Shown here in pieces: positions 13,069-31,008 of a stretch of DNA of 64,000 nt. The notes beneath the pieces are model-generated. The model saw only the letters and a list, made by a program, of their open reading frames with translations, did not search any database and was not told the DNA's origin. Origin of the DNA: Vicinamibacterales bacterium. GTDB taxonomy: Bacteria; Acidobacteriota; Vicinamibacteria; Vicinamibacterales; CAVVIG01. The stretch spans positions 509,127 through 573,126 of the forward strand of contig CBDDJX010000002.1 of assembly GCA_965229885.1 (NCBI GenBank), read 5' to 3'. A program made the position numbers and the translations under genes. How positions within the stretch are numbered: the first letter of the stretch is position 1; each line of letters starts with the position of its first letter.

Positions 13069-15078
13069 GTGACTCGCGATGGTCGCAACACCTTGATCGA
13101 GTCCCTCGCCCATCAGGAGGATGTTCGCAGTCGGGATCCGGCCACCACGCGGGCGGTGGCAGGGTCTGGGACCGGCGATTCACCTAAGGGCGACACAGAT
13201 GAGGGAGCCGCGGCGCAGGCGGCGGGGCGATCCATCGTGGCTGATACGGCTCACGCGCCACAAAACATCTACGAAATTTGCGCCTATGACGGCACCCCCG
13301 TGGCCCTGCATGTTCGGATACAGTCTCCGGGCCAAAAAAAACGATTCGTGTGGCAGCAGCCGGATGGTTCGAGCGGCCTCAACGGCCGGTCTGTCTCCGA
13401 GCTACCGCTGTATGGTACGGAGCAACTCCCCGGTCTCAAGTCCGGACGCTTGGTGGTCGTCACCGAAGGTGAGAAGGCCGCCGGCGCGCTCCGGGTGCGC
13501 GATATCCCCGCGGTCGGCACCGTCACGGGCGCTGCGGGCTGCCCCTCAGCCGATGTGCTCGCTACGCTCGACAGTTTCGACGTCGCGGTGTGGCCAGATG
13601 CTGACCCGCAGGGCCACAAGCACGCCGCGAAGCTGCTTGATGGCCTCCTGCGCACCCGCAAGGGGAAGGCCGAGGGCCTCTTCGAGGTCGATCTTGCGGC
13701 CCTTGGGCTCACAGCGACGGGCGCTGACGCCGACGACTGGTGCCCAGAGGACCCGATCGACGAGCTCCTTGTCGCGCTCAAGCCGTATGCGCCCCCGCCA
13801 GTACTCGAGCCGGCCGCGCCCACGACTACCACGCAGCGGATCGTGATCAAGGGTGGAAAAACGCGGGCCGGCCTGCTCGCCGCCCTGGGCCACTTAGCTA
13901 TTGACCTCCGCTACGACGAACGATCCGTGAGGGTGCAATTCCTCGACGCGACGGCCGACTTTTCCAAGTGGACCAACAGCGACGACATGTACCGGGCGGA
14001 ACTCCGGGAGCGAATCGCCGACAAGTTCCTGTATGTCACGAAGGACGGCCAGGCCCCTCTGGCCTTCAGCAAAGATCGATTCTCCGATGTCATCGACGCT
14101 CTACTCAACAGCCGGCGCATCGACCCCTTCAAGGAGTGGCTCGACGCCCTGCCGGAGTGGGACGGGGAGAAGCGGTTGGACTTCTGGCTCACTCGCTGCT
14201 TTCAGATCGGCGACATCAGCCCAGGATTGCTCAGGTGGGCGTCGTTCTCCGTGCTGATGGGCGCGGTGGCGCGGACCTACACTCCGGGTGAAAAACACGA
14301 TGAGATGGTGATTCTCGTCGGCCCGCAGAGCCTTGGGAAGTCAACGGTCTGGGCGTGGCTGCTGCCGCCGGCAGACCGTCGCTCCTGGTTCTCGGATGCG
14401 CTCAAGTTCCATTCAGACCTCAAAGCCCAGGTCGAGGCGCTCCAAGGCCGGGTCCTGGTCGAGGCAGCCGAGATGAGCGGGTCGACGCGCGCCGAGGTCG
14501 AGTCGATTAAGGGTTTTCTCGCCAGACAAGACGACGGCGCCGTCAGGCTTACCTACCGCCGCGACCCGATCGACCTTCCCCGCCGCTGCATCATCGTCGG
14601 CTCGACCAACGACCCCCGCTGTCTCCCGAACGACCCCTCTGGGAACCGCCGCTTCGTGCCGGTCCCCGTGACGGCCGGGGACCCTCGCAAGATCCGGAGT
14701 TTCGTCAACGAATATCGGAAGCAACTGTGGGCCGAGGCACGGTATCGATCACTCGTGCTCAAAGAGCCGGCGTGGCTGCCCGACGAGCTCAAGTCACAAC
14801 AGGCGGCTCTGACGGAACGCTACCGGGCGACAGACGAGATCGCCGAGGATGCCGTGCAGGAATACCTGGCCGGCCACTCGGGCAACGTCACGACCCGGCA
14901 GGTGGTCGAGGGGATCAAGTGGGACAGCGGTGGCCGGAGCGCCCACCGTATCACGACCGTTCTGAAGCAGCTCGGCTACACCCCCGGTCGGCGGCGGGTC
15001 GCTGGCGCGCTAGGGCGGTATTGGACCCCGCCAGGCACGAGTCTGATCGACGACCCCGACCCAGGAGAGAACACATGA
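13069..15078 (+). CDS. Bifunctional primase / P-loop replication protein (Toprim plus VirE/D5-like NTPase)
   Basis: Toprim-like VVVTEGEKAAGAL...VWPDADPQGHKHA. Walker A in VILVGPQSLGKSTVWAWL. C-terminal region typical of VirE-family island primases. Confidence 0.8.
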   Translation: MTRDGRNTLIESLAHQEDVRSRDPATTRAVAGSGTGDSPKGDTDEGAAAQAAGRSIVADTAHAPQNIYEICAYDGTPVALHVRIQSPGQKKRFVWQQPDGSSGLNGRSVSELPLYGTEQLPGLKSGRLVVVTEGEKAAGALRVRDIPAVGTVTGAAGCPSADVLATLDSFDVAVWPDADPQGHKHAAKLLDGLLRTRKGKAEGLFEVDLAALGLTATGADADDWCPEDPIDELLVALKPYAPPPVLEPAAPTTTTQRIVIKGGKTRAGLLAALGHLAIDLRYDERSVRVQFLDATADFSKWTNSDDMYRAELRERIADKFLYVTKDGQAPLAFSKDRFSDVIDALLNSRRIDPFKEWLDALPEWDGEKRLDFWLTRCFQIGDISPGLLRWASFSVLMGAVARTYTPGEKHDEMVILVGPQSLGKSTVWAWLLPPADRRSWFSDALKFHSDLKAQVEALQGRVLVEAAEMSGSTRAEVESIKGFLARQDDGAVRLTYRRDPIDLPRRCIIVGSTNDPRCLPNDPSGNRRFVPVPVTAGDPRKIRSFVNEYRKQLWAEARYRSLVLKEPAWLPDELKSQQAALTERYRATDEIAEDAVQEYLAGHSGNVTTRQVVEGIKWDSGGRSAHRITTVLKQLGYTPGRRRVAGALGRYWTPPGTSLIDDPDPGENT

Positions 15079-15320
15079 ACCATAAGCGAGAGACCGACCG
15101 CAAGCGTCGCGTGGTGCGGGCCGTGATTGAGGTTAGCAAGACGCATCAGAATCTACTTTTTGATATTGCTCAGGCGGCGGTCAGCGCCCGGCACATCGAG
15201 GCCGCCGAAGTGTGGGAAGCGATGCTGCAGGTTCACAACGACAACCTGAAGCGCGATGAGCAAATCATCGCCGGAATCCTACAAACATCGGGCCGTGTCG
15301 GGTCGACTACTGTGAATTGA
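15075..15320 (+). CDS. Small hypothetical protein coupled to the primase
   Basis: ATG overlaps the primase stop (ATGA). 81 aa starting MNHKRETDRKRRVVRAVIEVSK... Confidence 0.45.
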   Translation: MNHKRETDRKRRVVRAVIEVSKTHQNLLFDIAQAAVSARHIEAAEVWEAMLQVHNDNLKRDEQIIAGILQTSGRVGSTTVN

Positions 15321-15746
15321 AACGCGCCAGAGGACCCCACCCAACATGCTGAGGGTGATGCAAACCCGACCAGGGACGCCGCGCGGCGACTGCCGGGCGG
15401 CGTGTTACGCGTCCATCTTCGAGCTCGCCCTCGACGACTTCCCAGATACACGCTGGCCCGAGGCAATCCCGTGGCAGGGGGCCAGGACGCGACCCTCACC
15501 GCCCGTGGAGATGCCGCACGGGCTTTTCCACATTGAACGTCCCGCCGCTCGCCAGAGGGCCCTCGAAAAATCGAGGGAGTAATAGTCCTCCCCACAGCCC
15601 CCCGCTCGCGTGCGTCAATTTGCAATATTCCTTAATGCCCGCCCCGTCCGCGCACGCGCGTTTCAGAGGGTGGTAAGCCGCTCCGCAGGGTCGCCAATTT
15701 TCGACCCTTCCAGGAACGGGCTTTCGTCCCCCCTCGCTGTGCCGGA

Positions 15747-15983
15747 GTGTGACGGGTGTGACGGGCTTTTCTAATGTATTCCTTTTATCCCCTGTCCTGT
15801 CCACTATATCCATGTTAACCCCCTCAAAAAGTGGATACATTAGAAAAAGTCCGTCACACCCCGGCACATAAAAATAAACTTAATAACCACAATGACTTGC
15901 AGGTGTGACGGGGTCGAAAGCCAACCCTGCCGTACTCGGAAAACTTCAATATGTTATCCAAATGCCGTCACACCCTGTCACAC
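15747..15983. repeat. Iteron field: 9-mer GTGTGACGG in direct and inverted copies (candidate replication origin)
   Basis: Perfect copies at 15747-15755 and 15756-15764 (tandem) and 15903-15911. Inverted copies at 15851-15859 and 15965-15973, and a one-mismatch copy at 15975-15983. Embedded in an AT-rich stretch that also holds an inverted repeat CTAATGTAT...ATACATTAG (15771/15836). Confidence 0.6.
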
Positions 15984-17043
15984 CTCAAAAAACCACACAC
16001 TTTCCCTCCCCATGAAATCGCCCAATTTTTTCTCCCCGAACAGGCGCGAACTCTTATTTGAATTCGCGCCGGCCGATCGGTTACGGGCATTTTTCGCTTT
16101 CGCCGCGCATTCAGCCGACTTTTGTCCGATCGTCGCCCAATAGTCGAGCGAATCTGCAGCGTGCGCCGGTCGGCTGGACGTTCTGGGGTGCGAAGTCTCA
16201 TGGGGTCGTTGAGTGTGGGAAGCGGGCTGAAGGGTAGCGAAGAAAAGACGAGAATAGTATTTGGTGGAGGTATGATCCGCCGTTATTCTCATAATTACTA
16301 AGCGTTTTTGCTTATACCTGCTTACATATACAATTATATACACAATTACTAGGTCGGATCGCCACCGAACCTCGGCCTGGGTGGTCTGGACGTTCGTGGT
16401 GAGCGGGCTCCATGGGGTCGTCGGGCTTGGTGAGTCGGGCAGCGGTCAAGCCCGCGGCCGTTCCTCACGTGCGCGAGGGCTCGGCTCTTCCGCTCACGAT
16501 GACTCCCCGTGGGGGTCTGGACCGGGGCAGGATGGGGGCGGGCGGCCGAAGGCGCGCCCGTTCCGGCTGGACCCGTCGGATGTGCGCGGAGTCCAGGACA
16601 GGGCCCGGTCTGCGTCGAGGGTGCACTCGACATCGCCGAGGCCAGGGTCACAGGCGTCCGCACGGAGCCACGAGGCGCCGGCACCTGCACTGATGCGATG
16701 GCCCGATGCCGGAGCCCTGACGTCGTCGACGAGCACGAGGCGATGTAACTCATTTGATAATAATAGCTTAAAGCTTAAGCTGTCATCGCTTCCCCTCATC
16801 GTATCCCTCTTGCGCAATCGGATGTCCGCGGGCTTTGAAGACCGTGTGTGGACGTCGCAAGATCGCGGACCACAGAGACTACCAAGCGCTGATCAGCGGC
16901 TGCGGGGCACCATCGTCGCCACCGCCGTTGTGCCCAAACGACGATTGCGCGACGGCCAGCGACGCGCACGCGTGGCCGGCGGACAGAGGCAAAATAGAGC
17001 CACGCCGCGACCACGACACCGTTCTCCATGCAGAGGTAACGCA

Positions 17044-17733
17044 ATGTTCTTCGACCCGATGTATTTCCTCTTCATCCTGCCCGGGTTGGGACTCTCGCTC
17101 TGGGCGAGCGCGCGGGTCAAGCGCACCTTCAACAGGTATTCGAAGGTCTGGAGTCGGCGCGGGTTCACGGGCGCACAGGCCGCGGTGGCCCTCCTGCGCG
17201 GGGCGGGCATCACCGACGTGCAGATTGTCCGCGCCCACGGCGTGCTGTCCGACCACTACAACCCGGTAACGAAGAAGCTGGTGCTCTCCGAGCCGGTCCA
17301 TGCCTCGGATTCCATTGCTGCCGTCGGCATGGCCACGCACGAGGCGGGGCATGCTATCCAGCACGCGCGGCACTACGCGCCGCTCTGGCTGCGCTCGGCG
17401 CTGGTGCCAACGGCTTCCATCGGCTCGAGCCTCAGCTATGGCGCCATGGCCATCGGCTTGTTCTTGGCCTCGACGAACCTGGTACGGGTCGGCGCGGTGT
17501 TGTTCTCCGCCGTGTTGCTGTTCCAGGTCGTGACGCTGCCTGTGGAGTTCAACGCCTCGAACCGCGCGAAGGCGTTGACCGTGGAGCACGGGATTATCAC
17601 GGCGCAGGAGCGGGAGGGAGTGGACCGGGTGCTGAACGCCGCCGCACTGACCTACGTGGCAGCCGCGGTGAGTACGCTGCTGACGCTCCTGTACTTCCTC
17701 TGGCGGGCGGGTCTGCTCGGCGGACGGCGCTGA
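17044..17733 (+). CDS. Membrane zinc metallopeptidase (Zn_peptidase_2 / YpfJ-unrelated neutral peptidase family)
   Basis: MFFDPMYFLFILPGLGLSLWASARVKRTFNRYS...HEAGHAIQH...: family-typical N-terminus and HExxH. The ORF-track start at 16381 is an implausible extension. Confidence 0.85.
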   Translation: MFFDPMYFLFILPGLGLSLWASARVKRTFNRYSKVWSRRGFTGAQAAVALLRGAGITDVQIVRAHGVLSDHYNPVTKKLVLSEPVHASDSIAAVGMATHEAGHAIQHARHYAPLWLRSALVPTASIGSSLSYGAMAIGLFLASTNLVRVGAVLFSAVLLFQVVTLPVEFNASNRAKALTVEHGIITAQEREGVDRVLNAAALTYVAAAVSTLLTLLYFLWRAGLLGGRR

Positions 17734-17992
17734 GCCGCACGCTACCTTGAACGATGCTGGTACAGCGAAAACACTCCTCATACACAGTGGCACAGTGGAA
17801 GTGGTGGAGGCGGCGTCCACCATCTATAATGGTCATACGTGTTCCCATGGTGTCCAACCAAGTTCATGTAAAATACGTTAGTTAAACTTGTTAATAACTT
17901 GATGGCGTCTTGACGTGGTGCCACGATGTCCGGTATATTCATAAATTATTGTGTATAGTTCACTGTATAGCGACAAGCGCGAGAATCGATCG

Positions 17993-19240
17993 ATGCCGGC
18001 AACGCCGCCGCGCCGCCTCGCGCACCGCTTGAGCGCCGCCGTTGTGCGGACCGCCGAGCCCGGGTTCTATTGCGATGGCCACGGGCTGAACTTGCGCGTG
18101 GATCCGTCCGGGGCGCGGCAGTGGGTGCAACGGCTGGTCATTCGGGGCCGGCCCCGGATGCTCGGGCTCGGCGGCTACCCGCTGGTGTCACTGGCCGAGG
18201 CGCGCAACGCGGCGTTCGCCAACCGCCAGCGGGCGCGGGCGGGCGGAGACCCGCGGGCCGAGGAGCGCCACGGCCAGGGCGCGCCCACGGTCGAGGAGGC
18301 CGCCGCCGCGGTGTTGGAGCAGCAGCGCCCCGGCTGGCGCAATGCCAAGCACGCGCGGGACTGGCCACGCAGTCTGCGCGCCTATGCGTTCCCGCGCATC
18401 GGGGCGATGCCCGTGTCCGAGGTGACCACGGCCGACGTGCTGGCCATCCTCACCCCGATCTGGCACGACAAGCCCGAGACCGCACGGCGGGTGCGGCAGC
18501 GGATCGGGGCCGTGATGAAGTGGGCGGTCGCCATGGGACACCGGCCGGACAACCCGGCGGGCGATGCCCTCGGGCAGGCGCTCGGGCGGCAGCAGGCCAT
18601 CGTCCAGCACATGCGGGCGCTGCCCCACGGCGCGGTGGCAGACGCCCTCGCGACCGTGCGAGCCTCCCAGGCCTCGGTCACCACCAAGGATGCGTTCGAG
18701 TTCCTGGTGCTGACGGCGGCGCGCTCCGGCGAAATGCGCCTGGCGACGTGGGACGAAATGGACCTGGACGCGGGCGTGTGGACCATCCCCGGCGCGCGCA
18801 TGAAGGCGAAGCGGGATCACCGCGTCCCGCTTTCGGGGCGGGCGCACGCGATCCTGCACGACGCACGGAGACGCAGTGACGGCACGGGCCTCGTATTCCG
18901 CAGTCTGCGCGGGAAGCCACTCTCCAACACGACGCTATCGAAATTAATCAAGGAACTCGGCCTCGCCGCCGTGCCGCATGGGTTCCGGTCGAGCTTCCGG
19001 GACTGGGCCGCGGAACGGACGAACACACCCCGCGAAGTGGTCGAGGCCGCACTCGCCCATACGGTACAAAACCCCACCGAGGCAGCCTACGCGCGCAGTG
19101 ATCTCTTCGAGCGCCGGCGCCGCCTGATGGACGAGTGGGCGGCCTATCTCAGGGAGGCCGGCGGGCACGTGGTGGCTGACGCCGGCAACCATCCGTCGCC
19201 GAGTGGGCTTGATCAGACCGGATCGACCTCGTGCCCATGA
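17993..19240 (+). CDS. int: P4-type tyrosine integrase
   Basis: LSAAVVRTAEPGFYCDGHGLNLRVDPSGARQWVQR (DUF4102). ...FLVLTAARSGEMRLATWDEMDLDAGVWTIPGARMKAKRDHRVPL...HGFRSSFRDWAAE...AHTVQNPTEAAYARSDLF. An AT-rich promoter-like region lies upstream. Confidence 0.9.
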   Translation: MPATPPRRLAHRLSAAVVRTAEPGFYCDGHGLNLRVDPSGARQWVQRLVIRGRPRMLGLGGYPLVSLAEARNAAFANRQRARAGGDPRAEERHGQGAPTVEEAAAAVLEQQRPGWRNAKHARDWPRSLRAYAFPRIGAMPVSEVTTADVLAILTPIWHDKPETARRVRQRIGAVMKWAVAMGHRPDNPAGDALGQALGRQQAIVQHMRALPHGAVADALATVRASQASVTTKDAFEFLVLTAARSGEMRLATWDEMDLDAGVWTIPGARMKAKRDHRVPLSGRAHAILHDARRRSDGTGLVFRSLRGKPLSNTTLSKLIKELGLAAVPHGFRSSFRDWAAERTNTPREVVEAALAHTVQNPTEAAYARSDLFERRRRLMDEWAAYLREAGGHVVADAGNHPSPSGLDQTGSTSCP

Positions 19241-19405
19241 AACCAGCACATCAACCGGACCACGGCACACGCAGGACAGCCGCGGCAGGTGAACCACGAC
19301 GATCCACGAAACCAGAACCACATCGATCCTCGGAACATATGTGCGTCGCGTCATTGTCCTTGCGCCCGCCGTAGGCGTGATGGTCGGGACGGCCGACCTT
19401 GATGC

Positions 19406-19963
19406 CTAATGCACAGTGGTCCACGCGCCCCGCGTCGGCTGCAGCGGTGTGTTCGCCAGCCACTTCGCCCGCAGAACCTCCGGTGCCTTCTTTTCCGGAA
19501 ATATCACGCAGTCCCAGGAGAGCGCTGCGTGGCACGGAGTCGCGGCAAGGCGCTCTTCCACGATCCGCAGGGTGGTTTCCCCCCACTGCCCAGGCTCAAG
19601 GTGGTAGGGAACAGCCTTCGCGAAGTCGACCATGATGCCGAGCACGGACCGATCGACCGTCGGACCGACCGCCACCGAGGCCATTGCCAGAGTCTCGGCG
19701 GCGATCGTCCGATCGTCGAGCCCGCAACGTCTCAATCTTGCCTCGACGAGCGCAGCGAGTCGGGCTGGGAGGCCCCGCACATTCTGTGCCGGAATCAGCA
19801 TCGGCAGCAGCGAAGTAGAACTCACCAAGAGGAGAAGCGGCTGCCGATCCACCACAACTCGATTGACGTACCAATCGCCGAGCGCCGTATCGGAGCTGGT
19901 CGGGATGACCTCCGTTGCCGGCAGCAACGAGTTCAGCTTTCGTGTCGGCCGAAGTATGACCAT
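19406..19963 (-). CDS. Conserved hypothetical protein
   Basis: 185-aa ORF MVILRPTRKLNSLLP...LGDWYVNRVVVDRQPLLLLVSSTSLLPMLIPA... resembles a widespread uncharacterised family. No catalytic motif recognised. Confidence 0.55.
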   Translation of the reverse strand: MVILRPTRKLNSLLPATEVIPTSSDTALGDWYVNRVVVDRQPLLLLVSSTSLLPMLIPAQNVRGLPARLAALVEARLRRCGLDDRTIAAETLAMASVAVGPTVDRSVLGIMVDFAKAVPYHLEPGQWGETTLRIVEERLAATPCHAALSWDCVIFPEKKAPEVLRAKWLANTPLQPTRGAWTTVH

Positions 19964-20162
19964 GTCTCAGTCTAGCTGTGGTACCTCCGACGTTGCCTCC
20001 ATGGTCATCTTGAAGCATTGCAACCGCAATCAGTGGAAACACGATTGTGAAGCCACGTGACCCGAATTGCGGCGGGCGGCACTGCACCGCCGACGTTTTT
20101 GCGGACACCTCGCCCGTCTTATACCCTCTCTTCGCCCAAGTCTTCACCAGCAGCTCCCGTCG

Positions 20163-20429
20163 TCAGCCGGTCGGCACCGGCAAGGCCCAGATCCGCTGGA
20201 GCATCGACCCGAACAGGCGGCGGGTCAGGTGGCTTTCGGCCAGCAGGAGCCAGTAGTAGCAGGCATGTTTCACTAGCCGCTCACCCGTCTTGACGAGGCG
20301 CTGCTGGAGGCTGGTCAGCGACCACGTGTCGATCCGCGTCGGGAGCACCAGTCGTCGCCAGAGGTTGCCTAAGGTGTACGCGAGCACGCTCAGCTGCAAG
20401 CGGACCTCGTTCGCCGGAACCGGTGGCAC
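20163..20429 (-). pseudogene. IS1380-family transposase C-terminal fragment
   Basis: ...ANEVRLQLSVLAYTLGNLWRRLVLPTRIDTWSLTSLQQRLVKTGERLVKHACYYWLLLAESHL matches the characteristic IS1380 C-terminus. Nothing lies upstream. Confidence 0.7.
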
Positions 20430-20589
20430 GACGTTCGTGAACCGTGGAGAAATAGTGGAGACGGCGGGAACCTGTTCCCGATCCGCCTGGCGGCGGGTGC
20501 AGGTCCCGCCTCCTCCACAGGACCATGACGGTCACTCCCGCTCGCATAAGACAAGCGAATCGGCCTGACCTTGCACACGACGCCTCCGG

Positions 20590-20982
20590 ATGCGACGCAC
20601 AGGAGCGTGCGGACGATGGCCAAGGCCGAGGCCCTCAGTCCAACCATGTGTCGGGTCGTCTCGCAGGGACCTCAAGAGATTTCCGCAGCCGGTGCGCCGC
20701 GATTTCGGCCCGACGGTCTATGCAGCGCAGCGGGACGAGACCGATCCGGCGGCGAAGCCCCTGAGAGGCTTCGGTGGGACACGCGTCATGGAGATAGTCG
20801 ATCAGCACGACACCAACACGTACCGCGCGGTGTACACGGCTCAGTTCGACGAGGCGATCTACGTGCTCCATGTCTTCGAGAAGAAGTCCACGGGCGGCAT
20901 CACGACCCCGAAGACCGAGATCGACCTGATTCGCCGCCGGCTGACCGAGGCCGCGCGGCTTCATCGAGAAAGGCAACGCTGA
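20590..20982 (+). CDS. RelE/HigB-like toxin (Gp49-like/DUF891 type)
   Basis: ...VGSSRRDLKRFPQPVRRDFG...AKPLRGFGGTRVMEIV...TYRAVYTAQFDEAIYVLHVFEKKSTGGITTPKTEIDLIRRRL. Start uncertain (the only in-frame ATG is at 20590). Confidence 0.75.
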   Translation: MRRTGACGRWPRPRPSVQPCVGSSRRDLKRFPQPVRRDFGPTVYAAQRDETDPAAKPLRGFGGTRVMEIVDQHDTNTYRAVYTAQFDEAIYVLHVFEKKSTGGITTPKTEIDLIRRRLTEAARLHRERQR

Positions 20983-21014
20983 TATACCGGGACTTAGCGA
21001 CAGTCGAAGACGGT

Positions 21015-21091
21015 GTGCCCGTAGCTCAGTTGGATAGAGCATCGGCCTTCTAAGCTGGGGGTCGCAGGTTCGAATCCTGCCGGGCGCGCCA
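21015..21091 (+). tRNA. tRNA-Arg (anticodon TCT/UCU), CCA encoded
   Basis: Cloverleaf folded by hand: acceptor GTGCCCG/CGGGCGC, D-arm GCTC-AGTTGGATA-GAGC, anticodon loop CTTCTAA, variable loop GGGTC, T-arm GCAGG-TTCGAAT-CCTGC, then G-CCA. Very similar to E. coli argU. Confidence 0.92.
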
Positions 21092-22353: not shown

Positions 22354-23446
22354 TTGGGGCTTTGTTGCATGAATCGAACGTAGCCCGCAACGATCCCGAC
22401 CCAGTTGTTGGTCACCGCCTGATCGCGTACGACGCAGGCCTGCCCAAGTCCCTCATCCGATTCAGCACGTTACACGCGAGGACCGCCTCAGTCCCCTGCC
22501 CTGCTGAACTCCGCGCGCGAAAGCCCTCTCCGATGATGGACTTGTACCGGAAGAAGACGTTCTCCACGCGCGCCTGCCGATGGTAGCCCGTCTCCTTCTT
22601 CCATCGCCGCCGCCCGATCTCCTGCACCCGCTTGACGGTACGATCGCGAGCGAGGGATCGCGGCCGTCGGCGAGACACGGCGGCGGTCCTCTTCGGGGGA
22701 ACGACGACCTGCGCACCACGCGCGCCCGCCGCCTCGTAGACCGCGATCGTGTCGTAGGCGACATCCGCGGTGACGCTCGAGATATCGCCATCGACGACGG
22801 GGATCAGATCGACCGCAGTCGTGGCGTCGTCGACATGCGCATCGGTGAGGGCCTGCGCCACGATCACACCCGACCGGTCGACACCGAGATGGAGCTTCTT
22901 CCACCGACGCTCGCCGTGTCCCCCGTGTTTCGCGGCGGCCCACGCGCCTTGGCCCACGATCGACAGGCCGGTGCTATCGACGATGAGATGGATGGGGTCC
23001 GTGGCCGGGATGCGACGGAGCATCACAGCGAGCTGCTGACTCCGCCGCGAGAGTGTGGTGTGGTCCGGCGCGTCCAAATCGGCGCCCATCAAGGCCAGGA
23101 CCGACCGCACGAACCCCTCCGTCTGGCGCAAGGGCAAACCGAAGACGAGCCGGAGGATCAACGCGGTCTCGATCGCCACATCCGAGAACCGCTTCTGCCC
23201 ACCGGGGCGACCGGAGGGCGACGGTCGCCACGCGTCCGTGGCAGCGGCCGAGAGCCACAGGGTCACGTCACCTCGTTGGACGAGCGCTCGCTCGTACTCC
23301 CGCCAGTTCCCGACGCGATACGTTGTCTTGTATTTCGGATGCACCTTCGACTTCGTAAGCAGGATCGTGCGCTGGCCGCGGCCACAGGACCAGCCGGTTG
23401 ACGATGCCCGCCGAAGTAAGGGTCAGGAGCCATGCACCAAAGCCCG
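22354..23446 (-). mobile_element. IS5/IS903-like element, copy A (complete)
   Basis: Terminal repeats GGCTTTGTTGCATGAATCG (22354) and, inverted, CCATGCACCAAAGCCC (about 23430-23446) flank an intact transposase ORF. Confidence 0.8.
22412..23344 (-). CDS. IS5-family (IS903 group) DDE transposase
   Basis: 310 aa, MHPKYKTTYRVGNWREYERALVQRGDVTLWL...IVDSTGLSIVG...WKKLHLGVD...VTADVAYDT...ARVENVFFRYKSIIG... Confidence 0.9.
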   Translation of the reverse strand: MHPKYKTTYRVGNWREYERALVQRGDVTLWLSAAATDAWRPSPSGRPGGQKRFSDVAIETALILRLVFGLPLRQTEGFVRSVLALMGADLDAPDHTTLSRRSQQLAVMLRRIPATDPIHLIVDSTGLSIVGQGAWAAAKHGGHGERRWKKLHLGVDRSGVIVAQALTDAHVDDATTAVDLIPVVDGDISSVTADVAYDTIAVYEAAGARGAQVVVPPKRTAAVSRRRPRSLARDRTVKRVQEIGRRRWKKETGYHRQARVENVFFRYKSIIGEGFRARSSAGQGTEAVLACNVLNRMRDLGRPASYAIRR

Positions 23447-24326: not shown

Positions 24327-24506
24327 ATGCAGCCCCTCCTGTCCGTCTCCAAGATAGCTTCGGCCGTCGTGCCCAACCATGACCCGCGTGACGAGATCAC
24401 CGAAGAGGACGTTATCTTTGACTCGACGCTGGTCGCTCCCACCGCGGACTGCCAGCGCAGCACCACAATCACCCAGGTCCCCAGGGAGACTTCGGATGAA
24501 AACTGA
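24327..24506 (+). CDS. Candidate RiPP precursor peptide 1 (59 aa)
   Basis: AGGAA 7 nt upstream of the ATG. MQPLLSVSKIASAVVPNHDPRDEITEEDVIFDSTLVAPTADCQRSTTITQVPRETSDEN. Its C-terminal core and N-proximal PLL..SV..I are shared with the next ORF. The stop overlaps the next start by 11 nt. One residue below the 60-aa ORF-track cutoff. Confidence 0.5.
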   Translation: MQPLLSVSKIASAVVPNHDPRDEITEEDVIFDSTLVAPTADCQRSTTITQVPRETSDEN

Positions 24507-24642
24507 TCGGCTGCGAGTCGAACCATTACTCGCGCAATTGAGCGTCCAGATTCCGCCTGAGAAACCGCAGGACGGAGAGCAACGTCCCCCACGCGACACA
24601 TTGCACACCCGGGTTGCGCGCGAAACCACGGATGACGACTGA
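24496..24642 (+). CDS. Candidate RiPP precursor peptide 2 (48 aa)
   Basis: GGGAGA upstream. MKTDRLRVEPLLAQLSVQIPPEKPQDGEQRPPRDTLHTRVARETTDDD. The stop overlaps the ATP-grasp ATG by 11 nt, the same GGATGAnnACTGA arrangement as the ORF1/ORF2 junction. Confidence 0.5.
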   Translation: MKTDRLRVEPLLAQLSVQIPPEKPQDGEQRPPRDTLHTRVARETTDDD

Positions 24643-25618
24643 GGATGTCGATGTCCTCTTGGTCACCACCAGGCTTGACTCAGCTTCAGACGCCGTTGCC
24701 GACGCCCTAAAAAGAGCCGGAGTCAAGTTCTACCGATTGAACACTGAAGACCTACCGCTCGGCGCGAAGTCTTCGTATGAACTCCGAACCGGCGCACGCC
24801 GACTCCGCTGGCATTCGGAAGACTGCGCCGTTTCGCTTGACGGCGTCAAGCGCGTCTGGTTCCGTCGGCATCGCTTGCCCGCTTTGCCGCCGGATACGAT
24901 CCGCGCCCACGCCGAGTACTGCTTGAGGGAGTCCCAGTGGTTTCTGCGCGGCATGCTTTGGAATCTCGCCGAGCAGGTGCCAGCGGCTAACTGGATGAGC
25001 CTTCCCGTCGACATCCAGCGTGCGGAGTCCAAAATGCTCCAATTGCAGGTTGCCGAGACCGTGGGATTCACCTGTCCTGAGACGCTAATCTCCAACAACC
25101 CGGACGAAATCCGGGCATTCTTTGACCGACAGGAAGGCAGGGTTGTCGCGAAGCCCCTCCGGCTCGGCTATTTTGACTACGGTGACGTCCAGACCGCTGC
25201 CTACACTACCGCTGTGAGCACGGCTGACCTCGCCAGCGACGAGGCGCTGAAAGTCGCGCCTGTGATCTACCAGCGCCATTTGGAGAAGCGTTGGGACATC
25301 CGCGTCACGATCGTCGACAATTCAATTTACGCTGCGGCCATTCACTCCCAGGAAGCCGACTCGGCCAAAGTGGACTGGCGCCGAGCAGATGAGGAACTTG
25401 AGCACAAAGTGCATGCCTTACCAGAGGAGATAGACACGGCTTGCCAGCGCCTAATGAAGGCACTGAACCTACGCTTTGGCGCCGTCGATCTCGTGCTCGC
25501 ACCGAACGGTCAGTACTATTTCCTGGAGATCAACCCGAATGGGCAATGGCTGTGGCTTGAGGACAAACTCGGATTCCCGATTACGAACAAGATCATGGAA
25601 TGGCTCCGCAACATCTAG
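24632..25618 (+). CDS. ATP-grasp ligase, microviridin MdnB/MdnC (MvdC/D)-like
   Basis: MTTEDVDVLLVTTRLDSASDAVADALKRAGVKFYRLNTEDLP...VWFRR...AESKMLQLQVAETVGFTCPETLISN...VVAKPL...WDIRVTIVDNSIYAAAIHSQ...VDWRR...FGAVDLVLAPNGQYYFLEINPNGQWLWLE. ATG at 24632 preferred over TTG at 24614. Confidence 0.8.
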   Translation: MTTEDVDVLLVTTRLDSASDAVADALKRAGVKFYRLNTEDLPLGAKSSYELRTGARRLRWHSEDCAVSLDGVKRVWFRRHRLPALPPDTIRAHAEYCLRESQWFLRGMLWNLAEQVPAANWMSLPVDIQRAESKMLQLQVAETVGFTCPETLISNNPDEIRAFFDRQEGRVVAKPLRLGYFDYGDVQTAAYTTAVSTADLASDEALKVAPVIYQRHLEKRWDIRVTIVDNSIYAAAIHSQEADSAKVDWRRADEELEHKVHALPEEIDTACQRLMKALNLRFGAVDLVLAPNGQYYFLEINPNGQWLWLEDKLGFPITNKIMEWLRNI

Positions 25619-26325
25619 CCGCAGCACGTGACTCTTGCGTGAAGTGGGTCGGACGGTGGCTGTGGGACGGAGTCTGGCCTACTCTTGATCCGCCATCGAC
25701 GAACTTGACTGACGACGTCGAACAGCCAAAACCGGAAATCGACGCGGATGCAGACGAAGATGTTGTGCGCACGGTGTACGAGCGGCTATGCGCCGAACTG
25801 GAGACAGAAGCCGAAAGGAGGCGCGCGGTAGAAAACAAGCTCATTGCGGCTGGTTCGGTTGCTCCGATCGCCGTAACAATCATGGTCGCCGTAGCCACGT
25901 TCCTGTCTCGCGGCCGACTACAGGAATCCGTGTCAGAAAGCGCCGTAATAACATTTGTGGCGTTTTACGCGGCGCTGCAGTTCCTGCGCGCCACGTTGGC
26001 CGCGATCAACGGGCTGTCCAGGAAGAGCTACAATGTGCCGACCGTATCAGAGATCCTGCCGGCAAGCACAGAAGCACTGGTCGGGTATCTCCGCAATGCC
26101 TGCAATGACCACGTGCGCAGGCTTGAGCAGCATCGCGAAACGACGAACGAAAACGTGAGCCAGCTTGCGCTCGCTCACAAGTCGATTAAAAATGCAGTGA
26201 CTGCGATCGTCATCGCGCTCTTAATCCTCGTCGGGCTTATCGCATGGGAATACGTAGGCTTGGCGCGAGAAGGCCTAGCAGCCTGTATATGGACTCCTCC
26301 CGGTGATCAAGCGAGTGGGTCGTGA
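25600..26325 (+). CDS. Predicted membrane protein (acidic N-terminal region, about 3 TM helices)
   Basis: Start overlaps the ATP-grasp stop by 19 nt. TM candidates GSVAPIAVTIMVAVATFL, AVITFVAFYAALQFLRATLAAI and AVTAIVIALLILVGLIAW. No family recognised. Confidence 0.6.
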   Translation: MAPQHLAAARDSCVKWVGRWLWDGVWPTLDPPSTNLTDDVEQPKPEIDADADEDVVRTVYERLCAELETEAERRRAVENKLIAAGSVAPIAVTIMVAVATFLSRGRLQESVSESAVITFVAFYAALQFLRATLAAINGLSRKSYNVPTVSEILPASTEALVGYLRNACNDHVRRLEQHRETTNENVSQLALAHKSIKNAVTAIVIALLILVGLIAWEYVGLAREGLAACIWTPPGDQASGS

Positions 26326-26445: not shown

Positions 26446-27390
26446 GTGAAGTCGAGAGTGCATCCGAAGGACAAGACACAGTATCGCGTCGGGAACTGGG
26501 CCGAGTACGACCGAGCCCTCGTGCGGCGAGGCGACGTCACCCTCTGGCTCACGCCCGACGCGATCGCCACGTGGGCAGCGGCTGGCGTCGGCAGGCGGAG
26601 CGGGCAACTCCAGTATTCCGATCTCGCCATCGAAACCGCCCTGACGCTCAGTCTCAGCTTCCACTGACCGTTGCGTCGGACCGAGGGCGTCTTGACATCG
26701 ATCTTCGGGATGCTGGGCGTTGATCTCACGGCATCCGATCACACTACGCTCTCGCGACGCGGTCAGCATCTCGCCCTCGCGCTTCGGCGCGCCCGCCCGG
26801 GCACCAGCCTGCCCCTCATCGTTGACAGCGCCGGACTGTCCATCGTCGGCGAAGGTGAGTGGGCCGCGGCGACACATGGGGGCCGAGGGCGACGCGGCTG
26901 GAGGAAGCTCCATCTCGGCGTGGACGGGTCCCGTGTGATCGTGGCCTGCGCGCTGACTGAGCCGACGGCCGATGACGCGATGACGGGGGTCAGTCTGGTC
27001 GACGAGGTGGATGGACACCTCACCAGAGTGACGGCGGATCCGGCCGACGACACGCTCGCGTTCTATGGTGCGGCCGGTGCGCGAGGGGCGAGGGTCGTGG
27101 TGCCGCCGACCAAGACCGCGTCGTTGTCTCGACGGGGCGCCCGATCAGGTGCCCGCGATCGGACGATCAGGAGGGTGAAGGCGCTCGGACGGCGACGGTG
27201 GACGAAGGCGTCTGGTTACCCTCAGCACGCGCGCGTGGAGAATGCGTTCTTCCGGTACACGTCGATCGTCGGCGACTGTCTTCGGGCACGCAGTTCATCG
27301 GGGCAACAGCGTGAGGCCGTGCTCGCGTGTAACGTTCTGAACCGGATGACCGAGCTTGGCAGACCCGTCTCGTACCGCATCGGTAGGTGA
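26446..27390 (+). pseudogene. IS5/IS903-like transposase, copy B, with an in-frame TGA at 26665-26667
   Basis: MKSRVHPKDKTQYRVGNWAEYDRALVRRGDVTLWL...LSFH-TGA-PLRRTEG... continues in the same frame to ...LGRPVSYRIGR. The stop replaces the Leu of the conserved H-L-P-L-R. Right terminal repeat near 27430-27445. Confidence 0.85.
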
Positions 27391-28819
27391 CGGGCTCGAC
27401 GGTTTGAAGCGCGTAGGCCTGCCCGCATCCGCGCACCAACGCCGTTGCTGACGAGTTGACGACGAACGTGATCTGTGGCGTGCGTCGACCACCAATGGCC
27501 GCGAAGAGTCGATGCGATGCCGTGATCATCGCAAATCGTCGTCGGGCAGCGCTCATGAACATCAACAACGTGGCGAGAACGGCCGCCAGACGGCCCTGCA
27601 GCCCACGCGGCGTGCCGGCGCCGATCAGCTGACGCATGACGAGTCCGAGATTGAAGCCACCAGCATGAATCAGCACGCGCTTCAGGATGTTCGTGTGGCC
27701 GCGCAGATGCGTACGGCGCATGCCCCCCGTGTCATAGAGGTGCGCGAACGAGCGTTCGATCGTCTCACCGCGTCGCCGCATCAGGCGCCGTCCGCGTCGT
27801 CCATGCATCCGGCGGCGATTGCCATAGACCGGCGCCTGCGCGTCCGGCGCCTCCGACCAGTCGCGGCGGCCTCGGTCCGGCTCGGCGATGTACGACCGGA
27901 TACCGACCGCGTCGAGGTCCACCATCGTCTGGTTGCTGTGATACCCCTTGTCGCCGACCAGTTCGTCCAGTGCCTGTGGCGCCTCGCCGTCCCGCTGCGC
28001 GTCTTCGACTTGCTCGGCCGCGGCCGTCACCGTTTCGACGATCGTCGTCGTGTCGCCTTGGTCGGCGCCCTGCAGCGTGACGGCGACAATGGCGCCGGTG
28101 TCCAGGTCGACCGCATGCTCGGCTTTGTGGGCCAGATGCGTCCGGCCGTCTTTCATCTTCGTGACCTTCGCATCGGGGTCGTGCGGGTTGGTCCACTCCG
28201 TGTTCGACGTCTTCTTCTTGCGCTTCTTGTCCACCCGTGCCAGGTCCTCGCGCGTCGGGGTCTCGATCCCCGAGGCCGTGGCGAGCCCGGTCAGAAACGC
28301 CTGATAGCTCTCGCCGGTGTCGCGCCGCACGATGCTGCGCATCGCGGCGTTCGCCTCGAGCGTGGTGGCATCGATCGCCACGGTCTTCCCCTTGAGCAAT
28401 CCCACCTCGACGAGTCGTTGTTGCACCCACGTGAAGATGGCGCGGTGCGTCTCGACATCGATCAGGCGCCGCGTCCGCGAGATCGTCGAATGATCGGGCG
28501 GGGCGTCCTCCAGGCCGAGCCGCAGAAAACTGCGCACCGCCAACGAGTCGGTCGCGCGCCACGCGATCCCTCGTTCCGAATCGATGCCCTCGAAGTAGCC
28601 CACCAGTAGCAGCCGAAAATACCGGCCAGGCGCCAAGCTCGGTCGGCCCATGACCTGCGCGTAGAACCCGCGGCACAGGCCTTCGACAAACGGATCGAAG
28701 TCGTGCGCGTCGAGCAGCGCATTCAGCCGCATGTAGAACGGATGGCCGGGCGACTTCGGCAGTTCCGCGGCCGCGACCCACAACAACGATTGCTCGCTCT
28801 CTCGAATACCCATCGCCAT
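27167..28819 (-). CDS. IS1182-like (IS4/IS5 superfamily) transposase; the C-terminal tail probably runs into the neighbouring IS5 end
   Basis: MAMGIRESEQSLLWVAAAELPKSPGHPFYMRLNALL...RYFRLLLVGYFEGIDSERGIAW...AIDATTLEANAA...GDKGYHSN...ERSFAHL...HAGGFNLGLVMRQLIGAGTPRGLQGR. The last about 90 codons (27167-27445) overlap IS5 copy B on the other strand and are likely not native. Confidence 0.8.
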   Translation of the reverse strand: MAMGIRESEQSLLWVAAAELPKSPGHPFYMRLNALLDAHDFDPFVEGLCRGFYAQVMGRPSLAPGRYFRLLLVGYFEGIDSERGIAWRATDSLAVRSFLRLGLEDAPPDHSTISRTRRLIDVETHRAIFTWVQQRLVEVGLLKGKTVAIDATTLEANAAMRSIVRRDTGESYQAFLTGLATASGIETPTREDLARVDKKRKKKTSNTEWTNPHDPDAKVTKMKDGRTHLAHKAEHAVDLDTGAIVAVTLQGADQGDTTTIVETVTAAAEQVEDAQRDGEAPQALDELVGDKGYHSNQTMVDLDAVGIRSYIAEPDRGRRDWSEAPDAQAPVYGNRRRMHGRRGRRLMRRRGETIERSFAHLYDTGGMRRTHLRGHTNILKRVLIHAGGFNLGLVMRQLIGAGTPRGLQGRLAAVLATLLMFMSAARRRFAMITASHRLFAAIGGRRTPQITFVVNSSATALVRGCGQAYALQTVEPVTYRCGTRRVCQARSSGSERYTRARPHAVAPMNCVPEDSRRRSTCTGRTHSPRARAEGNQTPSSTVAVRAPSPS

Positions 28820-29009: not shown

Positions 29010-29843
29010 GGTTGTGTTGCAACTGTGGCCGACGGCGGCTGGTAACCTGAAGAGATCATGAAGCAGGCAATCCGACCGGCGATCTTCAAGTGGCGACAAA
29101 CCGAGCCCGAGCTGATTGTGTGCGCCGTGCGCTGGTACCTTCGGTACTCGCTCTCGTTCCGCGATGTCGAAGAACTGCTCAGCGAGCGCGGTCTGGAAGC
29201 GGACCACACGACCATCTGGCGCTGGGTCCAGCGCTACGGTCCCGAACTGGAAGAGCGGCTGCGCCGTCATCTCAAACCAACCAACAGGTCCTGACGTGTC
29301 GATGAAACCTACGTTCGTGTCAAGGGCCGTTGGTGCTACCTCTACCGAGCCATCGATTCCACCGGCGCCACGATCAACTTCGTGCTCTCGGGCTTGCGCG
29401 ATGCCGCTACGGCCAAACGCCTGTTTCGCAAGGCGCTCACTGATCCGTCGCATCCGCAGCCCCGTGTCATCAACACGGACCAGGCCCGCCTTTACGGCTC
29501 GGCGATTGCAGGGGTGAAAAAGGAAGGACTCCTGCGACGCCGTTGCCGCCACCGGCCGGTCCAATACTTGAACAACATCGTGGAGCAGGATCATCGAGCG
29601 ATCAAACGACGCGTGAAGGCCAAGCAGGGCTTTCGTGCATTCCACGCGGCGCGGCGAACGATCCAAGGCTACGAGGCCATGCACATGATCCGGAAGGGGC
29701 AAGCGAGGTGGGTGAGCGGTTCGGATGTTAAGCGACAGATTCAGTTCATTAACAACTTGTTCGAGGTGGCGGCATGAGACGGAGCCCGGCCAACTCGACC
29801 AATCGCTCTCTTGCCGCTTTTGGAAAGTTGCAACACATTCGCT
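29010..29843 (+). mobile_element. IS6-family element
   Basis: Terminal repeats GGTTGTGTTGCAACTGTGG (about 29010) and, inverted, GAATGTGTTGCAACTTTCC (about 29822-29843). Size about 0.83 kb with a single transposase gene. Confidence 0.75.
29058..29777 (+). pseudogene. IS6-family transposase with an in-frame TGA at 29292-29294
   Basis: MKQAIRPAIFKWRQTEPELIVCAVRWYLRYSLSFRDVEELL...KPTNRS-TGA-RVDETYVRVKGRWCYLYRAID...VINTDQARLYG...NNIVEQDHRAIKRR... The stop sits where the family has Trp (S-W-RVDETY), so TGG to TGA. Confidence 0.85.
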
Positions 29844-30162: not shown

Positions 30163-31008
30163 TCAGGCCGCCGTGCCGAAGCTGGTTGCGTCGAAGTACA
30201 CCACATCCGGCGTCCGCCGACCAAGTGCACTATGACGCCGTCGCCCGTTGTAGAACTGAAAGTAGCAGGGCAGCCCTGCCCGGAGCGAGGCGGGGGTCTC
30301 GTATGCATGGAGATACACATCCTCGTATTTGACGCTGCGCCAGAGACGCTCGACGAACACGTTGTCGATCCAGCGTCCCTTGCCGTCCATGCTGATGGCC
30401 ACCGCATGGGCTTTGAGCACCGCCGTAAACGCCTGGGACGTAAACTGAGCGCCTTGGTCCGTATTGAAGATCGCCGGCGGTCCGTAGTGGGTGAGCGCGT
30501 CCTCGAGGGCCTCGACACAGAAGTCGCTGTCGACGGTGTTTGACACACGCCAGGCCAGGACCCGGCGCGAGTACCAATCCAGGATGGCCACCAGATACAT
30601 GCACCCCTGCGCCATTGGGATGTAGCAGATATCGCTCGCCCACACCTGATTCGGCCGCTCGATGGACAGGCCCTTCAGCAGGTACGGATACACCTTGTGT
30701 CCGGCCCCGGGCTGGCTCGTGCGCGGCTTCGGATACAGGGCACTCAGGCCCATCTGGCGCATCAGGCGCTGGACCCGCTTGCGATTCACCGGGTGCCCCT
30801 GGGTTTCGAGCTCGTCTCGAAGGCGGCGACTGCCGTAGAACGGACGCTCTAAGTGGATCTCGTCCAGGAGGCGCATCAGGGCCAGATCCTCCGATGGGAT
30901 CCCGGTGGGGTGGTAATACACCGTCGACCGCGCCACATCGAGCAGCTCGCAGCGTCGTGTGACGGTCAACGGGGGGTCAGCTTGAATCATCGCTCGGCGC
31001 TCGCTCAC
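30163..31008 (-). CDS. IS3-family transposase OrfB (rve integrase core)
   Basis: ...RPNQVWASDICYIPMAQGCMYLVAILDWYSRRVLAW...IFNTDQGAQFTS...ISMDGKGRWIDNVFVERLWRSVKYE... Confidence 0.9.
   Translation of the reverse strand: MSERRAMIQADPPLTVTRRCELLDVARSTVYYHPTGIPSEDLALMRLLDEIHLERPFYGSRRLRDELETQGHPVNRKRVQRLMRQMGLSALYPKPRTSQPGAGHKVYPYLLKGLSIERPNQVWASDICYIPMAQGCMYLVAILDWYSRRVLAWRVSNTVDSDFCVEALEDALTHYGPPAIFNTDQGAQFTSQAFTAVLKAHAVAISMDGKGRWIDNVFVERLWRSVKYEDVYLHAYETPASLRAGLPCYFQFYNGRRRHSALGRRTPDVVYFDATSFGTAA

Follow-up and report, generated by a model that had tools for sequence, protein, structure and literature searches.

Graspetides are a fast-growing class of RiPPs, peptides that are made by the ribosome and modified after translation; they are prized for inhibiting proteases and for giving enzymatic access to constrained macrocycles. 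Here we describe four overlapping genes at positions 24,327 to 26,325 of a 64,000-nucleotide stretch of DNA from a Vicinamibacterales bacterium (GenBank assembly GCA_965229885.1, contig CBDDJX010000002.1, forward strand). In the following, "the window" means this whole stretch, and all positions are counted from its first letter. The genes encode two small peptides (open reading frames ORF1 and ORF2), an ATP-grasp ligase and a membrane protein with three transmembrane segments (3-TM protein). Judged from sequence, they very probably form a biosynthetic operon for a graspetide, that is, an omega-ester cross-linked RiPP, of a single-core subfamily that is sister to group 5 of Lee et al.

Closest described systems

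Thuringinin and groups 3, 4, 5 and 6 of Lee et al. were merged into one precursor superfamily, cluster 13, whose members have a common leader and repeated cores (Makarova et al., 2022). In the same study an uncharacterised membrane protein was described as specific to cluster-13 loci and suggested to be a transporter. Precursors of the type TKTxxxxE[SR]DD are labelled group 5 in Figure S2B of that work, and Vibrio precursors of this type are included in cluster 13. The characterised group-5 member is OEP5-1 from Vibrio sp. JCM 18905 (Lee et al., 2020). The window was compared with 90 related loci, whose ligases are 29-93% identical to its own. Two kinds of locus are distinguished below: type A, the kind found in the window, has one to four tandem small genes with one core each at the extreme C-terminus, whereas type B has a single precursor gene with 3-6 repeats of TKTxxxxE[SRG]DD. 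The type-B loci were assigned to the cluster 13/group 5 family; an example is the locus L063, which encodes the Alicycliphilus precursor AEB85047.1, a listed member of cluster 13.

In a neighbor-joining tree of 94 ligases, all type-A loci fell into a clade of their own (98/100 bootstrap; 100/100 for the subclade of the window), apart from a proteobacterial type-B (group-5-type) clade that formed its sister. The TgnB-like ligase, Nostoc MvdC/MvdD and actinobacterial TgmB branched progressively further out. Beyond the type-A clade, the ligases closest to that of the window are of the group-5 type (36-37% identity, E 8e-65; Croceicoccus 37%). As in the window, group-5 loci have the gene order precursor, ligase and a 3-TM protein of ~220-290 aa that is homologous to that of the window, and by this comparison the layout of the cassette matches theirs. 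Judged by eye, the leaders of the two kinds follow a similar logic, in which a P-h-h motif (h, hydrophobic) is followed by YD and then by a hydrophobic stretch; their cores agree in having two Thr residues upstream of an E-x-DD block.

Both the arrangement and the spacing of the cores differ, however. Group-5 loci have one precursor gene with 3-6 tandem cores joined by linkers, whereas type A has 1-4 genes with a single core each, and neither ORF1 nor ORF2 shows the tandem-core T-K-T-x-x-x-x-E-[SR]-D-D pattern that defines group-5 precursors. The spacing is T-x-T and E-x-D-D in group 5 but T-x-x-T and E-T-T-D-D in type A, which should lead to rings of different size. Type A additionally conserves V(-3), T(+1) and T(+2), numbered from the core Glu at position 0. 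The named sources differ as well, being mainly Acidobacteriota for type A and Proteobacteria, Bacteroidota and Firmicutes for group 5. The preliminary description of this DNA had called the core unfamiliar and unlike thuringinin-type repeats. The spacing and the single-core layout are indeed new, but the stated unlikeness was too strong, as the sister ligases are accompanied by TKTxxxxE[SR]DD cores. Because of the sister ligase clade, the likeness of the leaders and the homologous membrane protein, the core is better regarded as a spacing variant of the group-5 core. What is novel thus appears to be a variant with one core per gene at the very C-terminus and TxxT...ExxDD instead of TxT...ExDD spacing. 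Compared by eye only, the long-form type-A leaders (PFLxRFAxPxP..LRYD..RQ..GQWIDxPDA) resemble cluster-13 leaders, and HTRVARETTDDD of ORF2 is close to TETRVARESDDDE of Clostridium bolteae. Among the group-5-type loci, that of a Nitrospirae metagenome-assembled genome (L007, 3577-5820) encodes a 137-aa precursor with four cores, and its 3-TM homolog has an additional Lys/Glu-rich, coiled-coil-like C-terminal tail of ~80 aa.

Thuringinin (group 3; TgnA/TgnB of Bacillus thuringiensis) is similar in that one ATP-grasp ligase makes ester links only, a 3-TM membrane protein with similar spacing of the transmembrane segments is present in the cluster, and the precursor also belongs to cluster 13. 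It differs in its TgnB-like ligase, which is 29% identical to that of the window, in its core (TTxxTxTxENxDPDE, three repeats) and in its gene order of ligase, membrane protein and precursor. In the thuringinin-type locus of B. thuringiensis pHS18-2 (L008, 1735-4393), the ligase bears the annotation 'PH domain-containing protein' and the precursor that of a 'hypothetical protein'; a toxin gene of the Cry8Ea1 family and an IS6 transposase lie next to the locus.

The microviridins (group 1; MdnA/MdnB/MdnC) provide the best solved-structure matches to the ligase and likewise have a single C-terminal core, often with several precursor genes. Unlike the window cassette, they have a TxKxPSDx(D/E)(D/E) core and a Lys-Glu lactam formed by a second ligase; the cassette encodes one ligase only, as compared with the paired ester and amide ligases seen, for example, in the Nostoc mvd locus. 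The microviridin leader motif PFFARFL is present in neither ORF1 nor ORF2, and the GNAT acetyltransferase and ABC transporter carried by microviridin clusters do not occur in the cassette. Plesiocin (group 2; PsnA/PsnB) shares a hairpin-like arrangement of the ring-forming residues but has the core TTxxxxEE in four repeats, and PsnB is a distant match to the ligase (2.3e-11, ATP-grasp domain only).

Precursor peptides and ligase of the cassette

The four genes form a single overlapping unit on the forward strand, in the order ORF1, ORF2, ligase and 3-TM protein. ORF1 (24327..24506, 59 aa) encodes precursor peptide 1, which has a leader of the ligase-distal class with a P-L-L motif at 24333..24341, the putative ligase-recognition element, and the core STTITQVPRETSDEN at 24459..24503. 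In this core, T(-8) and T(-5) are predicted ester donors, and E(0), D(+3) and E(+4) are predicted acceptors. ORF2 (24496..24642, 48 aa) encodes precursor peptide 2 with a shortened leader of the ligase-proximal class, in which the P-L-L motif at 24523..24531 lines up with the Pro column that is invariant among the aligned precursors; its core DTLHTRVARETTDDD at 24595..24639 fits the family consensus TxxTxVxxETTDDx-stop. The two peptides end in ...TTITQVPRETSDEN and ...TLHTRVARETTDDD, respectively. The ligase (24632..25618, 328 aa) comprises a pre-ATP-grasp region at residues 8-114 and an ATP-grasp region at residues 132-325, and is followed by the gene of the conserved 3-TM protein (25600..26325, 241 aa; transmembrane segments at ~81-99, 115-133 and 198-216), a proposed exporter or ligase partner.

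The stop of ORF1 overlaps the start of ORF2, and the stop of ORF2 that of the ligase gene, by 11 nt each (CGGATGAAAACTGA and CGGATGACGACTGA), and the ligase and 3-TM genes overlap by 19 nt. AGGAA precedes the ATG of ORF1 and GGGAGA that of ORF2, both by 6 nt. Upstream of the ligase ATG no Shine-Dalgarno-like sequence was found, which is consistent with translational coupling. Upstream of ORF2 its frame contains no stop as far as an ATG at 24379, from which the product would be 87 aa long; the start at 24496 is preferred since the upstream extension is not kept in the closest genome (L001). The coordinates and translations of ORF1 and ORF2 in the preliminary description were exact, and both 11-nt overlaps, both Shine-Dalgarno motifs and the 19-nt overlap were found as it had reported. 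It had also noted that residues shared by the two peptides are encoded by different codons. This was confirmed for PLL (CCC CTC CTG in ORF1, CCA TTA CTC in ORF2) and for the segment ETS-D of ORF1 (GAG ACT TCG GAT) as compared with ETT-D of ORF2 (GAA ACC ACG GAT).

Ratios of nonsynonymous to synonymous substitution rates (dN/dS, Nei-Gojobori) were calculated against L001, a locus of a Vicinamibacterales metagenome-assembled genome with a ligase 82% identical to that of the window. The ratio was 0.14 for ORF1 (1.15 and 1.42 in the other frames), 0.29 for ORF2 (1.45 and 0.88 in the other frames) and 0.18 for the ligase. Against a further locus, L002, ORF2 gave 0.18, and over the comparisons with both loci the alternative frames of ORF2 ranged from 0.8 to 1.6. 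Low values were thus confined to the proposed frames of ORF1 and ORF2, which bears out the earlier suggestion that selection acts on the peptides, and on these comparisons both are conserved coding genes under purifying selection. Orthologs of ORF1 were present at the equivalent position in L001-L004, and the whole cassette of 59 aa, 48 aa, 328 aa and ~220 aa was repeated in L001-L003.

Across the related loci, the terminal motif [TS]xxTxxxxExxD[DEN]x-stop was found at 66 of the 1,255 ORF ends within 1.5 kb upstream of related ligases and at none of the 10,018 ORF ends that served as control in the remainder of this DNA. Within the type-A clade, 29 of the 31 loci with enough upstream DNA had an ORF with such a terminal core upstream of the ligase, and at least two were present in 23; the consensus of the type-A core is T-x-x-T-x-V-x-x-E-T-T-D-D-x-stop. 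In a profile of 60 non-redundant type-A precursors, conservation was 93% for T(-8), 98% for T(-5) and 93% for V(-3), followed by E(0), T(+1) (90%), T(+2) (81%), D(+3) and D(+4) (88%), and the stop lay exactly one residue past position +4 in 59 of the 60. A P-h-h leader motif was present in 47 of these precursors; for graspetide precursors in general, a 'Phhx(1,2)h' leader motif was reported in ~50% (Makarova et al., 2022). The ATG of the ligase gene is nested in the GAT-GAx codons of the acidic tail of the last precursor, with an overlap of 11 or 14 nt that is kept in loci whose ligases are as little as 37% identical, indicating that the coupling is old. Downstream, a 3-TM homolog abuts the ligase in all 26 type-A loci with enough downstream DNA. 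Taken together, these data indicate that precursor core, ligase clade and downstream 3-TM protein have been co-inherited across ~30 loci. Recurrence of small ORFs upstream of homologous ligases had been proposed as a check of the graspetide assignment; ligase homologs down to ~36% identity keep small upstream ORFs with a T/D/E core.

Type-A loci can combine two leader classes within one locus, for example at L062 (1579-2502), L045 (191-843) and L050 (340-745). The ligase-proximal class has the form PFLxRFAxPxP..LRYD..RQ..GQWIDxPDA and the distal class an acidic [DE][DE]xLPAxV motif; ORF2 and ORF1 look like reduced forms of the proximal and the distal class, respectively. A precursor of the type-A clade at L013 (~2230-2480) has the core HADNAQVRRETTDDG, in which both Thr donors are missing; it may be either a decayed substrate or one with another cross-link pattern.

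A search with the type-A precursor profile among 5.8 billion proteins yielded 83 clusters, all annotated as 'hypothetical protein' and without a Pfam domain. Named sources of these clusters were Terriglobales, Acidobacteria, Ca. Binatus and an uncultured Albidiferax. The short-leader form of ORF2 had ~8 representatives in an exhaustive phmmer search. The gene call of the source contig (L094, 2696-3001; a 611-kb metagenome contig) includes ORF1 and misses ORF2, which is 48 aa long and overlaps both of its neighbours; this illustrates how such precursors escape annotation. The string 'ETTDD' had no match in a nearly complete set of the supplementary data of Makarova et al., no relevant match in the full-text literature searched, and no match in the portion of the 2026 RODEO dataset (Carter, 2026) that was covered.

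For the ligase itself, Pfam searches gave PF21068 (MvdD-type pre-ATP-grasp, 8.3e-14, residues 8-114) and PF08443 (RimK-like ATP-grasp, 1.8e-5). Full-length NCBIfam matches were obtained with TIGR04187 (1e-75), TIGR04185 (MvdC, 7e-72) and TIGR04184 (MvdD, 4e-65), while the score with TIGR04192 (grasp-with-spasm) was 110.9 and did not reach the cutoff of 230. Matches to the RimK family (TIGR00768, 1.9e-13; 50 bits, where the cutoff is 143), to the S6-Glu ligase model (5e-4) and to the GshB model (1e-3) were also recorded. Among solved structures, MdnB (5IG8) matched at 7.5e-53 and MdnC (5IG9) at 1.2e-44; MdnB, AMdnB, MdnC and CdnC together spanned 1e-39 to 1e-53 and aligned collinearly with the ligase over ~318 residues, and RimK matched at 1e-4. 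A database search with the ligase returned 1,422 homologs. From these profile and structure matches, the 328-aa protein is identified as an ATP-grasp maturase of the MvdC/MvdD/TgmB superfamily with a leader-binding pre-ATP-grasp domain; the region that had been described as a Rossmann-like N-terminus is this MvdD-type domain and was named accordingly. Its matches place the ligase among the graspetide maturases, apart from RimK and GshB. With this placement and with the recurrence of the upstream ORFs, the initial reading of the locus as a graspetide cassette was upheld.

Membrane protein and genomic surroundings

Homologs of the 3-TM protein are encoded downstream of group-5-type ligases in Croceicoccus (E 4e-7), Sinorhizobium (E 8e-5) and Nitrospirae (hhalign probability 95.6%). 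The membrane proteins next to group-5-type ligases presumably correspond to 'cluster 18' of Makarova et al. Pfam, NCBIfam and PADLOC searches with the 3-TM protein gave no match. Type-A and type-B homologs have a common layout, with a charged helix (E..E.ERRR..E.K) before the first transmembrane segment and a loop of ~65 residues between the second and the third. An AlphaFold2 model was all-helical and of moderate confidence (pLDDT, the predicted local distance difference test, 69; pTM, the predicted template modelling score, 0.40). No significant fold match was found for this model in the PDB, Foldseek returning generic helical bundles with a best E of 0.33. Most of the soluble mass of the protein lies in the N-terminal region of ~80 residues and in the ~65-residue loop, which are flanked by positive charges and are therefore predicted to be cytoplasmic. 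The C-terminal tail of the window's protein (~26255-26325) exceeds that of its relatives by ~21 aa and bears no relation to it; the relatives are 220 aa long and end in ...WESLT. This divergence starts just before an insertion sequence (IS) copy of the IS5 type, and the insertion may have altered the end of the gene.

IS5-like elements in fact flank the cassette on both sides. On the left lies an IS5-family transposase (22412..23344, - strand; PF13737, PF01609), and on the right a diverged, frame-broken IS5-like copy (26446..27390, + strand), in which two ORFs (26446-26667 and 26671-27390) are similar to the transposase on the left. The two copies form an inverted repeat of 577 nt (22411-22987 / 26815-27391) that is 73% complementary, the right copy being split over two frames. 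A recent composite transposon was considered and rejected, as the flanking copies are only 73% alike and one of them is frame-broken. Hallmarks of an integrative island were observed upstream of the cassette (13069-21091), namely genes for a VapE-like primase (13069-15078) and a Zn-metallopeptidase (16381-17733), followed by one for a tyrosine integrase (17951-19240) and by a tRNA-Arg(tct) (21015-21091), which is a likely attachment site. Further IS elements crowd the downstream side: at 27167-28819 (- strand) a DUF772/DDE transposase, at 29058-29777 an IS6-like gene that contains an internal stop, and at 30163-31008 (- strand) an rve integrase of the IS3 type.

The neighbours of other type-A loci include Tn7-like genes together with Thoeris, as well as restriction enzymes and integrases. 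At L005 (1-8421), a single-precursor type-A cassette directly follows Tn7-like TnsB/TniB/TniQ-TnsD genes and also adjoins a Thoeris-like ThsB-TIR/SIR2 pair; it looks like cargo of a Tn7-like element in a defence island. Altogether, the IS, integrase and Tn7 surroundings support horizontal mobility of the cassette. A similar mobile-element neighbourhood is seen in graspetide group 4 (Carter, 2026), whose characterised member, however, is from Sphingobacteriales.

Proposed maturation and alternative readings

By analogy with microviridin MdnB/MdnC and plesiocin PsnB, the leader would dock on the ligase through its P-L-L motif. The ligase would then use ATP to phosphorylate E(0), D(+3) and D/E(+4) on their side-chain carboxylates, and T(-5) and T(-8) would attack the activated carboxylates through their hydroxyls, which, if the chemistry follows that of described graspetides, should yield two, at most three, macrolactones. 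Our best guess for the topology would be a nested hairpin, its inner ring closed between T(-5) and E(0) and its outer one between T(-8) and D(+3) or D(+4). Both precursors are probably processed by the one ligase despite the two leader classes, and the stop/start overlaps are likely to couple the translation of precursors, ligase and membrane protein. More speculatively, the 3-TM protein might export the product or might be a membrane-anchored partner of the ligase, and the leader might be cleaved by an unlinked protease. Characterised graspetides are all protease inhibitors; the product of the cassette would, by speculative analogy, probably be one as well, and the invariant Val(-3) in the loop might be its P1 residue.

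Several points weigh against the cassette being a functional graspetide operon of this kind. The scores of the ligase lie below the curated cutoffs of the subfamily models (254.8 against 350 for TIGR04187 (SAV_5884), 242.2 against 425 for MvdC and 220.1 against 475 for MvdD); the enzyme is a graspetide maturase of the superfamily that fits none of these curated subfamilies. The core of ORF1 departs from the consensus at +2 (S) and +4 (E), and the leaders of both ORF1 and ORF2 are reduced to PLL, the RYD...RQ...GQWID block of the long form being missing. Neither a leader protease nor an ABC/PCAT exporter was found at the window or at the related loci, and in scans for promoters and terminators the counts were at the level of shuffled sequence, giving no signal. 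The 3-TM protein gave no BLASTP match with the thuringinin membrane protein of B. thuringiensis, and the hhalign probability for this pair was 0.07. Given its position between the IS copies and the divergent tail of the 3-TM protein, the window's copy of the cassette could be impaired. Finally, the chemistry proposed for the cassette and its subfamily is a prediction from sequence.

The absence of a linked exporter and leader protease would also fit a mobile conflict module (anti-phage, addiction or toxin-immunity), in which the cross-linked peptides stay within the cell and inhibit, for instance, a protease of the phage or the host, and the 3-TM protein, which is unlike any transporter, is the effector or the immunity factor. 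The surroundings point the same way: the window's copy lies within an island with integrase, tRNA-Arg and IS elements, and type-A loci occur in mobile or defence islands next to Tn7-like TnsB/TniB/TniQ and Thoeris ThsB/SIR2, a Type ISP restriction enzyme, integrase and rve genes or a PDDEXK nuclease. A role of natural graspetides in protection from proteases or bacteriophages was also speculated upon in a PNAS paper of 2024. Mobile context is weak evidence, however, because accessory biosynthetic clusters are often carried on mobile DNA, and the pairing of ligase and membrane protein is also found in group-5-type loci on large plasmids with no obvious defence neighbours. No component of the cassette matches a PADLOC model, and we consider such a module quite improbable. 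Far less credible still is that the enzyme is a RimK/GshB-like carboxylate-amine ligase which extends an acidic C-terminus by poly-Glu-type tailing and makes no side-chain macrocycles. The acidic run that closes the peptides, D(+4) being followed by one residue and then the stop in 59 of 60 precursors, is superficially like the RimK substrate S6, and there are weak RimK-family matches (PF08443, 1.8e-5; TIGR00768, 1.9e-13). The matches to graspetide maturases are, however, 40-60 orders of magnitude stronger and cover the whole protein, RimK lacks the MvdD-type pre-ATP-grasp domain that the window ligase has, and tailing would not need two Thr donors at fixed spacing that are 93-98% conserved.

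For the 3-TM protein, an alternative to export is that it is an obligatory partner or scaffold on which the stability or activity of the ligase depends, comparable to MirB/MirC, a precedent for a graspetide synthetase that depends on a partner protein. Its strict co-occurrence with the ligase (26 of 26 loci) and the 4-19-nt gene overlaps, which imply coupled translation, are in line with such a role, as is the predicted location of its soluble parts mainly in the cytoplasm. MirC, however, is unrelated to the 3-TM protein, being a SurA-like chaperone that is soluble, and the fuscimiditide preprint states that examples of groups 4-6 have been characterised but is silent on co-expression of a membrane protein. 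The confidence of the 3-TM model is also only moderate. We regard an obligatory partnership as unlikely. A somewhat better, though still doubtful, prospect is that type A constitutes a distinct group altogether. It would then combine a new ring topology of the C-terminal TxxTxVxxETTDDx core (for example three esters via T(+1)/T(+2), or the use of near-terminal carboxylates) with one ligase serving two unrelated leader classes and a maturation or release that depends on the 3-TM protein. If this were true, it would provide the first function for the membrane protein seen in plesiocin-, thuringinin- and group-5-type clusters, and the cassette would be a self-contained module carried around by mobile islands.

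On the preferred reading as a single-core graspetide operon, the cassette appears to be an uncharacterised, mostly acidobacterial sub-branch of a known peptide class and in this sense an incremental find. The sub-branch is coherent, with ~30 loci and 83 protein clusters mainly from poorly studied soil phyla such as Acidobacteriota, and every new graspetide core spacing so far has led to a new ring topology. The cassette would offer a minimal single-core substrate of ~15 residues, and its natural pairs of divergent leaders acting with one enzyme may be useful for leader engineering. The tightly linked membrane protein bears on a standing question, the role of such proteins in plesiocin-, thuringinin- and group-5-type clusters. 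The understanding of the graspetide class as a whole is unchanged. The cassette provides a well-defined target for heterologous expression.

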